IMG/VR virus record: IMGVR_UViG_3300020191_000008
Span: 14,341 to 78,340 of that record
Strand: one strand, 5' to 3'
Source of the DNA: a virus
Lineage: Duplodnaviria; Caudoviricetes
Length of the DNA stretch: 64,000 nt
The notes beneath the pieces were generated by a model. The model saw only the letters and a list, made by a program, of their open reading frames with translations, did not search any database and was not told the DNA's origin. The position numbers and the translations under genes were made by a program. This document shows, piece after piece, positions 55,937-56,659 of the stretch; the first letter of the stretch is position 1; the number at the start of each line of letters is the position of its first letter.

Positions 55937-56659
55937 TTATCTCCTTTTCCGCTGTAAAAGAAGCAGCAATCCCAGCCCTCCAAATAAGCTTGAGCTAAGT
56001 TCTGGTATAGGTTTCAACTCAACAGAGTTGCCAATGATAAGTTCTTGTGGGATAACCTCGTCGAAAACAAAGTTATCCATTCCAAAACAGAAGGCAGACC
56101 ATTCACCTTGGACATACTCGCCCGTTGTCCATTGCGATAAATCACGGATAACAACTTTGTCAACATTATCGAACGAAGAGGGAAGGAAGACATCTTGGTA
56201 TTCGCCTCCCCAATCTTCACTTGGCAATTGAAACTCTTCAGTAACTATTGCTCCATCTAACCATCCTTGGATGGCAATGATTTCGTCTCCAGTTGCTGCT
56301 CCCCCACCGATTTCAGTATTAGATGTCAAATGGAAGAACTGAAGATCAAAAGGAGTGTTTCCATCACGAAAAATCTCAATAGATGAGATTGCGCTCCAAT
56401 GGCCATGAATTACGTCATCTCCAGCACCGTAGTAATTTCCTACGGTTTGAAAGCTCCAATCTTCATTGGGAGACAAATAGTTTAGGATAACATCTCCTTC
56501 TTGATAGCTCATCACGCCATCGTTATAAGATTGTGCATCAGTGATGACGACTTCTCCATTTTCAAGATTTGCGGTTCCTCCAGTAAAGGTGACAATAGCC
56601 GCCTTAGCCAAAGAAGTTACGAATAATAGTGGTAGTATTAGTGGTATTAGTTTGTTCAT
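55937..56659 (-). CDS. PEP-CTERM sorting-domain surface protein
   Basis: Signal peptide MNKLIPLILPLLFVTSLAKA, acidic beta-rich body, C-terminal IPELSSSLFGGLGLLLLLQRKRR (PE-x motif, TM helix, Arg/Lys tail). Confidence 0.85.
   Translation of the reverse strand: MNKLIPLILPLLFVTSLAKAAIVTFTGGTANLENGEVVITDAQSYNDGVMSYQEGDVILNYLSPNEDWSFQTVGNYYGAGDDVIHGHWSAISSIEIFRDGNTPFDLQFFHLTSNTEIGGGAATGDEIIAIQGWLDGAIVTEEFQLPSEDWGGEYQDVFLPSSFDNVDKVVIRDLSQWTTGEYVQGEWSAFCFGMDNFVFDEVIPQELIIGNSVELKPIPELSSSLFGGLGLLLLLQRKRR

Follow-up and report, generated by a model that had tools for sequence, protein, structure and literature searches.

We evaluated a gene in a 64,000-nucleotide (nt) stretch of DNA (hereafter the window; positions 14,341 to 78,340 of IMG/VR record IMGVR_UViG_3300020191_000008, a tailed virus of the Caudoviricetes) and found that its 240-amino-acid (aa) secreted product, encoded on the minus strand at 55937–56659, ends in what homology identifies as a derived PEP-CTERM-type tail that has lost its third proline. 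Judging from sequence comparisons throughout, this tailed gene is a true accessory gene that a lineage of large tailed phages from salt marshes and estuaries has long retained, and the body of its protein (~194 aa) shares homology with the domain at the N-terminal tip of giant immunoglobulin (Ig)-like repeat adhesins of Akkermansiaceae (Verrucomicrobiota). Infected cells probably carry this phage protein in their envelope, and for the more specific reading, display that depends on an exosortase of a verrucomicrobial host, we consider the case for and the case against about evenly balanced.

The tailed gene, taken from the list of open reading frames (ORFs) and backed by 430 homologues and 46 IMG/VR loci, starts with ATG and has its stop codon at 55937–55939. 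Its product begins with MNKLIPLILPLLFVTSLAKA, followed by AIVTFTGG, and the first 20 residues (56600–56659, minus strand), read by eye together with a hydropathy scan, form a signal peptide with a lysine at position 3, a hydrophobic segment marked by the scan at residues 3–21 and a final A-K-A, from which we infer export through Sec and removal of the leader after A-K-A. Across the 31 sequences of our alignment A1 this leader is variable and is followed by invariant F25, G27 and G28, after which the body (residues 21–214) is strongly acidic, with 33 Asp and Glu against 3 Lys and Arg; the signal peptide and acidic body described in an earlier interpretation made from the DNA letters alone (the sequence-only reading) are thus both present. 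Behind the body lies the C-terminal sorting or anchor tail LKPIPELSSSLFGGLGLLLLLQRKRR (55940–56017, minus strand), which comprises a P-E-L motif whose P219 and E220 are invariant in A1, a hydrophobic helix LSSSLFGGLGLLLLLQ of ~16 hydrophobic residues, and RKRR directly before the stop codon. Searches beyond this family returned little, with no PHROG match for the tailed protein, no match among PDB sequences at E ≤ 1 for the profile of A1, and no PADLOC match for six cassette and neighbouring proteins.

According to Haft et al. (2006, PMC1569441), a PEP-CTERM domain combines a near-invariant Pro-Glu-Pro with a transmembrane helix and a basic cluster. The tailed protein possesses the predicted transmembrane helix and the basic cluster at the extreme C-terminus, as well as the N-terminal signal peptide of PEP-CTERM proteins. 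Searching for its relatives, we found 430 at E ≤ 1e-3 among 1359 candidates, with canonical VPEP tails ending the more distant ones. Within A1 the tails line up column for column, and 12 of the 31 members match PF07589 at E ≤ 0.01, while neighbours in the ESM Atlas included clusters named NF038120 PEP-CTERM and clusters with PF07589 on 31–88% of their members. Because aligned relatives match PF07589, the Pro-Glu pair is invariant and the distant relatives carry VPEP, we conclude that the tail is a derived PEP-CTERM tail, such that membership in the PEP-CTERM protein family holds by homology. The verrucomicrobial style attributed to the tail by the sequence-only reading also held up, as the Akkermansiaceae tails that we sampled follow the pattern [IV]PEPSS..LL.L....LLRRRR, and a native one in that family is VPEVSSALLGGLGMLALLRRRRA.

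The DNA around the tailed gene is that of a phage. The window encodes a tape-measure protein (11958–16526), ribonucleotide reductase (RNR) subunits, a DnaB-type helicase, a DnaE-type polymerase, a Clp/Lon-like ATPase, glycosyltransferases and a nucleotide-sugar epimerase, with virion-protein PHROGs downstream and no tRNAs anywhere in the window. Scanning IMG/VR revealed 46 viral contigs with relatives of the tailed protein (39–100% identity), which together with two contigs of a metagenome-assembled genome (MAG), G001, and one further contig, L008, gave 49 loci that we compared by tblastn of the 58 window proteins. All 49 possess the tailed gene, and its cassette partners recur in most of them (38 loci have the 64-aa neighbour, 33 the 294-aa neighbour and 37 a convergent 98-aa ORF); both flanks are common to the window and four of the viral contigs (L080, L087, L096, L100). 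Host DNA mis-assembled or mis-binned into the phage contig would fit the GC content of the gene, which is somewhat above that of the window (41.8% vs 36.3%), and the assemblies of one DNA run, X1, that break inside the gene. The same gene and neighbours, however, occur on many independently assembled IMG/VR contigs with syntenic flanks, phage genes lie on both sides, and the breaks in run X1 fit co-occurring variants, so that mis-assembly, a possibility the sequence-only reading had left standing, is excluded for practical purposes. In that same run, the summed contig depth was 151–195 over 56001–57200 and about 110–140 elsewhere, and the breaks inside the tailed gene fit several co-occurring variants within one sample. 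GenBank phages gave no nucleotide match to 50000–64000 and no protein match to the tailed gene, and the closest DnaE of an isolated phage was at most 33% identical, with mixed hosts and hence no host clue from DnaE; the phage lineage is uncultured. Public runs containing the stretch came from salt-marsh, estuary, freshwater-labelled and marine metagenomes.

Conservation of the tail across these phages is strict in some positions and relaxed in one. Every phage-type copy whose C-terminus lies within its locus (48/48, among them the tails of L084 and L085 checked by hand) keeps the Pro-Glu, the hydrophobic stretch and the basic end across 39–100% identity. We scored 10 phage tails against the curated models (cut-offs of 16 bits for TIGR02595 and 20.7 bits for PF07589), and one passed, that of L114, whose VPEP tail reached 29.8 bits with TIGR02595 and 24.9 bits with PF07589; two came near the TIGR02595 cut-off (15.1 and 14.2 vs 16), and seven, including that of the window, were unreported. 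A quick maximum-likelihood tree, for which viral rows shorter than 200 aa and identical sequences were left out and 24 of the 69 more distant cellular loci were used, placed the 31 viral, bin and L008 rows in one clade and the 24 cellular rows in the other, each with a Shimodaira–Hasegawa-like approximate likelihood ratio (SH-aLRT) of 98, and the phage tails with VPEP or near-threshold scores branch first.

The closest cellular kin of the phage body are surface proteins of Akkermansiaceae. In a scan of species-representative genomes, phage-clade-like copies were found only in G001 and in L008, a 3.2-kb contig of an Akkermansiaceae MAG (G003:C205) whose domain is 79% identical to the phage protein and 83% identical to the phage gene in nucleotides, with all other cellular relatives in the scan at or below 42%. 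The L008 protein, which opens with this domain, exceeds 660 aa and continues into Ig-like repeats and past the end of the contig. Two further proteins, each 67% identical to the phage domain, extend this picture: P0121, annotated at NCBI as 'Ig-like domain-containing protein, partial [Akkermansiaceae bacterium]', and P0122, a 1,794-aa protein on a contig of 92,951 bp whose leader is that of L008. Both carry DUF5011, Big_13, Big_6 and HYR domains (PF16403, PF19077, PF17936, PF02494).

Comparing these copies in segments revealed that L008 is a mosaic. Its residues 61–125 are 88% identical to the phage protein vs 71% to P0122, and its residues 126–215 are 96% identical to P0122 vs 77% to the phage; in bins of 60 nt along the gene, identity between phage and L008 runs 69, 88, 90, 98, 97, 80, 80, 77, 73 and 74%, with the peak of 97–98% covering gene positions 241–360 (120 nt). 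Consistent with this, the tree nests L008 inside the phage clade in a set of 10 rows at SH-aLRT 97, and GC content rises from 43% in the domain region of L008 to 49–51% over the remainder of its gene and about 54% for G003. We take contig G003:C205 to be truly from Akkermansiaceae because its first 1,371 nt are 99% identical to contig C103 of a second Akkermansiaceae genome, G069, and 4 of the 61 genomes sampled from that family contain matches to its flanking 174-aa ORF. The simplest reading of these sequences is a recent gene conversion from the phage lineage into a variable Akkermansiaceae surface-protein locus. The 99% identical 1.37-kb flank (G003:C205 1–1400 against 846–2216 of G069:C103, also L137) includes the promoter region and the leader peptide, and after this common leader the mature proteins are unrelated, with the phage-like domain and Ig repeats in G003 and a different repeat protein in G069, which looks like a cassette-swapping surface-protein locus.

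Because the adhesin gene of G003 is a mosaic with the phage gene, and G003 possesses both exosortases and PEP-CTERM tails, the host is probably an exosortase-bearing bacterium of the Akkermansiaceae. G003 has 3 matches to the exosortase model PF09721 over the cut-off and 61 TIGR02595 tails over the cut-off (66 at E ≤ 1), and among 20 of its tails that we inspected, the motif is PEP in 18 and PES in one, and is missing from the last, in a style like that of the phage tail. The native tail VPEVSSALLGGLGMLALLRRRRA noted above, from another Akkermansiaceae genome, has the motif VPEV, so that non-proline third residues (VPEV, PES) do occur in exosortase-bearing genomes. As the sequence-only reading had observed, the window itself encodes no exosortase candidate, with none of its 58 ORFs possessing more than two hydrophobic segments. 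The use of a host exosortase, as that reading had proposed, has a footing in G003 and meets an obstacle in G001, the MAG that bears phage DNA and lacks an exosortase by three models.

Several results weigh against exosortase-dependent display, the first group concerning the tail. Where the near-invariant Pro-Glu-Pro would stand, this protein reads P-E-L, and the third proline is replaced in 20 of the 22 distinct phage tails. The whole protein matched no PF07589 in Pfam and no TIGR02595 from NCBIfam at E ≤ 10, and the 30-aa tail alone matched neither model at E ≤ 10; the sole NCBIfam match of the whole protein was NF038120 (PEP_CTERM_QFxxD) at 20.5 bits (E 3.5e-4) against a cut-off of 80 bits, over residues 92–240 and taking in an 'LQFF' stretch. 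With the third proline replaced and both models below cut-off, the 'complete' PEP-CTERM signal of the sequence-only reading was overstated, and the scoring it had suggested gave for this tail the absence of a PEP-CTERM hidden Markov model hit that it had itself named as grounds for rejection. The P0122 adhesin, furthermore, ends without a PEP-CTERM tail, and 17 related viral records (fragments, 15–58% complete; L108 and L105 stand outside this set) contained no exosortase. Three metatranscriptome runs have contigs that cover the tailed gene, and these also cover 28–30 of 30 bins of the whole stretch and so cannot show transcription.

The second group concerns the host. The nearest genome holding phage DNA is G001, an uncultured Flavobacteriaceae MAG binned with CONCOCT (99% complete, 7% contaminated), which has two copies of the tailed gene on phage-like contigs of 25 and 37 kb and in which PF09721 and TIGR04128 had no match, TIGR04178 matched only below its threshold, and no tail passed the PEP-CTERM cut-off. 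GC content is 36.3% in the window, 39.2–43.9% in three G001 stretches and 53.7–54.7% in G003. The phage NrdA is 52–59% identical to proteins in 16 of 60 other Flavobacteriaceae genomes, and only 40% identical in 2 of 81 Verrucomicrobiota. Among 151 Akkermansiaceae genomes searched at the DNA level, with 2 candidates scored per genome, there was no spacer-like match and only weak matches to the Clp gene. In our view the contigs in G001 belong to phages and were binned by composition, and the phage RNR is an older acquisition. Shine-Dalgarno use was 7/58 in the phage and, by crude ORF calls, 4/61 in G003 and 18/47 in G001, which does not discriminate between hosts, and a comparison of Gmd at a strict threshold of 1e-120 matched only G001 phage contigs. 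Eight G001 contigs (C148, C58, C140, C64, C189, C87, C59 and C88) are contigs of at least two related phages, and the RNR copies in G001, at 99% and 95% identity plus more distant ones, fit composition-based mis-binning and the 7% contamination. At 63765–63812 of the window, ~30–48 nt recur at numerous sites across contigs C87 and C189 of G001, in part with 97–100% identity, which suggests a repeated unit in tail-fibre-like genes rather than spacers. The exosortase-family protein XrtF (TIGR04128) was over the cut-off in 37 of 61 sampled Flavobacteriaceae genera (e.g., L135, L136) and was not found in G001; XrtF is not known to have a substrate class, and its sorting of the tailed protein would be a long shot.

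These same observations lend themselves to a simpler account, in which the tail is a decayed signal that serves as a plain membrane anchor with no exosortase involved, the domain being periplasmic and tethered to the inner membrane with RKRR inside, in Flavobacteriaceae or any other host. This account is possible, and we rate it clearly below exosortase-dependent display. It accommodates the lack of a TIGR02595 or PF07589 match, a third motif residue free to vary among the 22 distinct tails (A 8, L 5, V 2, I 2, P 2, S 2, M 1), and the GC content, RNR similarity and binning that point to Flavobacteriaceae together with a G001 devoid of exosortases. A mere anchor, however, would not need the Pro-Glu that is kept in 48/48 copies across 39–100% identity, the basal phage members keep VPEP or near-threshold tails, the native VPEV and G003 PES tails occur in exosortase-bearing Akkermansiaceae, and recombination with an Akkermansiaceae gene points to an exosortase-bearing host. 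Strict retention of Pro-Glu alongside consistent loss of the third residue among the derived phages would also fit an exosortase decoy, a P-E-x tail that binds the host exosortase, is poorly processed and blocks host PEP-CTERM sorting late in infection, to the potential detriment of the 61 PEP-CTERM proteins of the candidate host; a conserved, fast-evolving, adhesin-like body would be needless for a pure decoy, and we consider this improbable.

Returning to exosortase-dependent display, its steps would be as follows. Late in infection the product would be exported via Sec and its leader cut off after A-K-A, leaving the acidic domain tethered by the P-E-x motif, the hydrophobic helix and the Arg/Lys cluster; a host exosortase would then recognise the tail and hand the domain to the cell surface or slime layer, such that infected cells would present a short version of the host adhesin tip that the phage has made. 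Candidate roles for such a copy are to compete with or mask the adhesin, to keep infected cells attached, and to protect progeny from debris. Superinfection exclusion is possible and fits poorly because the operon is late, and a mimic or competitor of the host adhesin tip appears to fit the homology better. More speculatively, and with a good deal less assurance than for display itself, phage and Akkermansiaceae host may keep recombining one hypervariable adhesin-tip domain, with the late, exosortase-anchored copy acting as an adhesin mimic or decoy and the change from P-E-P to P-E-x tuning its handling by the exosortase. Were this so, the mimic could, for example, occupy the adhesin ligand or blind a receptor used by this or rival phages, sparing progeny from loss on debris or shutting competitors out.

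The assignment to late infection comes from the genes and signals around the tailed gene, which is the last of three tightly coupled minus-strand genes. The first (56850–57734) encodes a 294-aa acidic, Ala/Thr-rich protein and its stop codon overlaps the next start (TAATG); the middle one (56656–56850) encodes a 64-aa protein with one hydrophobic segment and its stop codon overlaps the tailed-gene start (ATGA). No PHROGs, Pfam or PADLOC family matched the cassette proteins, and the 294-aa protein retrieved nothing usable from the ESM Atlas (best score 0.86). Upstream of the operon is a divergent control region of 43 nt (57735–57777) with a motif on each strand, namely TTTGTGTATG ahead of the operon and GGTGTAAT ahead of a divergent plus-strand gene (57778–58092) for a holin-like 104-aa protein with two hydrophobic segments and only weak PHROG matches. 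This motif, [TA]GTGTA[AT], occurs in the upstream 80 nt of 14 of 58 ORFs vs 1.1 ± 1.0 in random 80-mers, mostly before virion genes, and sits 6–24 nt before the start in 13 of the 14 bearing ORFs (45 nt in the other), so that it is probably the late promoter element of the phage. The 'late-type motif' of the sequence-only reading is thus real and enriched, and was misplaced in that it precedes the first operon gene rather than the tailed gene. At the other end of the operon, 18 nt past the tailed-gene stop, lies a bidirectional intrinsic-terminator-like hairpin of 13 pairs with T runs on both strands (55890–55919). Because the late motif opens the operon and this terminator closes it, we conclude that the tailed gene is probably made late, with lysis and virion genes.

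Beyond the terminator lies the convergent 98-aa ORF (55532–55889, plus strand), conserved in 37 of 49 loci, inside which an 83-aa ORF begins with a signal of the lipoprotein type (..LTSC). We treat the two as a candidate spanin pair, although the hydropathy scan marked no hydrophobic segment in the 98-aa ORF. Such surroundings raise the prospect that the tailed protein is a lysis accessory, spanin-like or a regulator of holin or spanin: the operon stands between the candidate spanin pair and the holin-like gene, shares the late motif with the latter, and the cassette and candidate spanin genes move together. We nonetheless find this unlikely, as the tailed protein has no lipobox cysteine, a feature of spanin lipoproteins (its signal ends ..LAKA and the mature protein starts AIVTF), the homologues of its body are PEP-CTERM proteins of cells and adhesin tips rather than known lysis proteins, no PHROG matched it, and a second genome type places the operon after glycosyltransferases. 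A virion or tail-fibre-associated protein with an adhesin-like binding domain might likewise be expected from the inferred late expression next to structural genes and from the domain in common with adhesins. This too seems doubtful to us, and to much the same degree, given that the gene is on the strand opposite to the structural genes and has no PHROG match, and that a cleavable signal peptide with a C-terminal membrane anchor is not the usual build of tailed-phage virion proteins.

Evaluating the cassette across loci, we found that it moves. The phage contig L078, whose other genes are 28–66% identical to those of the window, has only 55586–57731 in common with it, at 88% nt identity overall and 92–96% inside the gene, and this common block begins within the convergent ORF; L100 shows the reverse, with flanks 80–95% identical and 64–66% identity across 56000–56599. 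These comparisons indicate that phages exchange the tailed gene by recombination. That phages swap the locus and the host gene recombines with it shows strong, changing selection at this locus. The window has a glycosyltransferase block at 25841–30005 (minus strand; GT9, GT4 and two genes without assignment), and in the second genome type (L078, L108, L007, L101, L122, L110) homologues of this block stand immediately upstream of the operon in the same orientation. Glycosyltransferase block and cassette thus form one co-oriented block in the second type and are 26 kb apart in the window. The tailed protein may be linked to glycan synthesis.

Other promoter signals in the window bear on the host and lend some support to Akkermansiaceae. 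A Shine-Dalgarno-like motif precedes 7 of the 58 ORFs. A perfect sigma-70 consensus (TTGACA-16-TATAAT) lies at 33169–33196 in the gap before nrdB, and TATAAT is enriched upstream of ORFs (9 vs 2.2 ± 1.5). TAnnTTTG is the Bacteroidetes promoter type, and it was not enriched upstream of ORFs in the window (5 vs 3.6 ± 1.8); nor were sigma-70-like sites overall (49 vs 58.6 ± 7.8, and 26 vs 21.4 ± 4.8), so that the promoter argument for such a host draws, among sigma-70 signals, on the single perfect site and the TATAAT count only.

Our literature search returned no description of phage-encoded exosortase substrates beyond one passing mention, a sentence in a preprint (10.64898/2026.09.15.751708) that notes a protein with a PEP-CTERM domain in a Dehalococcoides virus-like element; PMC12642866 covers host genes only. 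Because the search gave only this one mention, a phage that feeds a protein into the exosortase pathway would, if the reading is right, represent a little-described remodelling of the infected-cell surface. Exosortase sorting itself has few tested substrates, and which motif positions are important is not known, such that a phage lineage that keeps Pro-Glu, helix and basic end with the third residue freed offers a natural mutagenesis series for these positions. For an uncultured phage of marine and estuarine Verrucomicrobiota, the mosaic tract, in turn, provides a host link based on sequence, which is rare, and it indicates that phage genes feed variation into a bacterial surface-protein locus.

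Set beside known systems, the tailed protein resembles each in part. An envelope protein of phage T5, Llp, masks receptors or excludes superinfection; proteins of this type are, like ours, phage proteins exported into the infected-cell envelope, and, as commonly described, they are lipoproteins or inner-membrane proteins without an exosortase-type tag, the likeness being one of description only. PEP-CTERM proteins of the exosortase (EpsH, Xrt) systems possess the same succession of signal peptide, diverse body, Pro-Glu motif, helix and C-terminal basic cluster, and the phage tail aligns column for column with tails that pass PF07589. It differs from them in reading P-E-L below both model cut-offs, in a carrier in which no exosortase was found (the window and 17 related viral fragments), and in belonging to a three-gene late operon, whereas theirs is a single gene after a large intergenic region. 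NF038120 (PEP_CTERM_QFxxD) is the sole curated family that reports the phage protein, and the ESM Atlas neighbours bear its name, but at 20.5 bits against a cut-off of 80 the phage protein is a distant relative rather than a member. The closest likeness is to the Akkermansiaceae adhesin tip (P0122, P0121 and G003 C205), with 67–79% aa identity over the whole domain and a similar mature start (TVTFTGG and IVTFTGG), although the bacterial domain caps a long stalk of Ig-like repeats and the phage domain is joined directly to its tail. What is particular here is the combination of a degenerate motif kept across a phage lineage, a late operon, trade of the gene between phages, and live recombination with a host adhesin.

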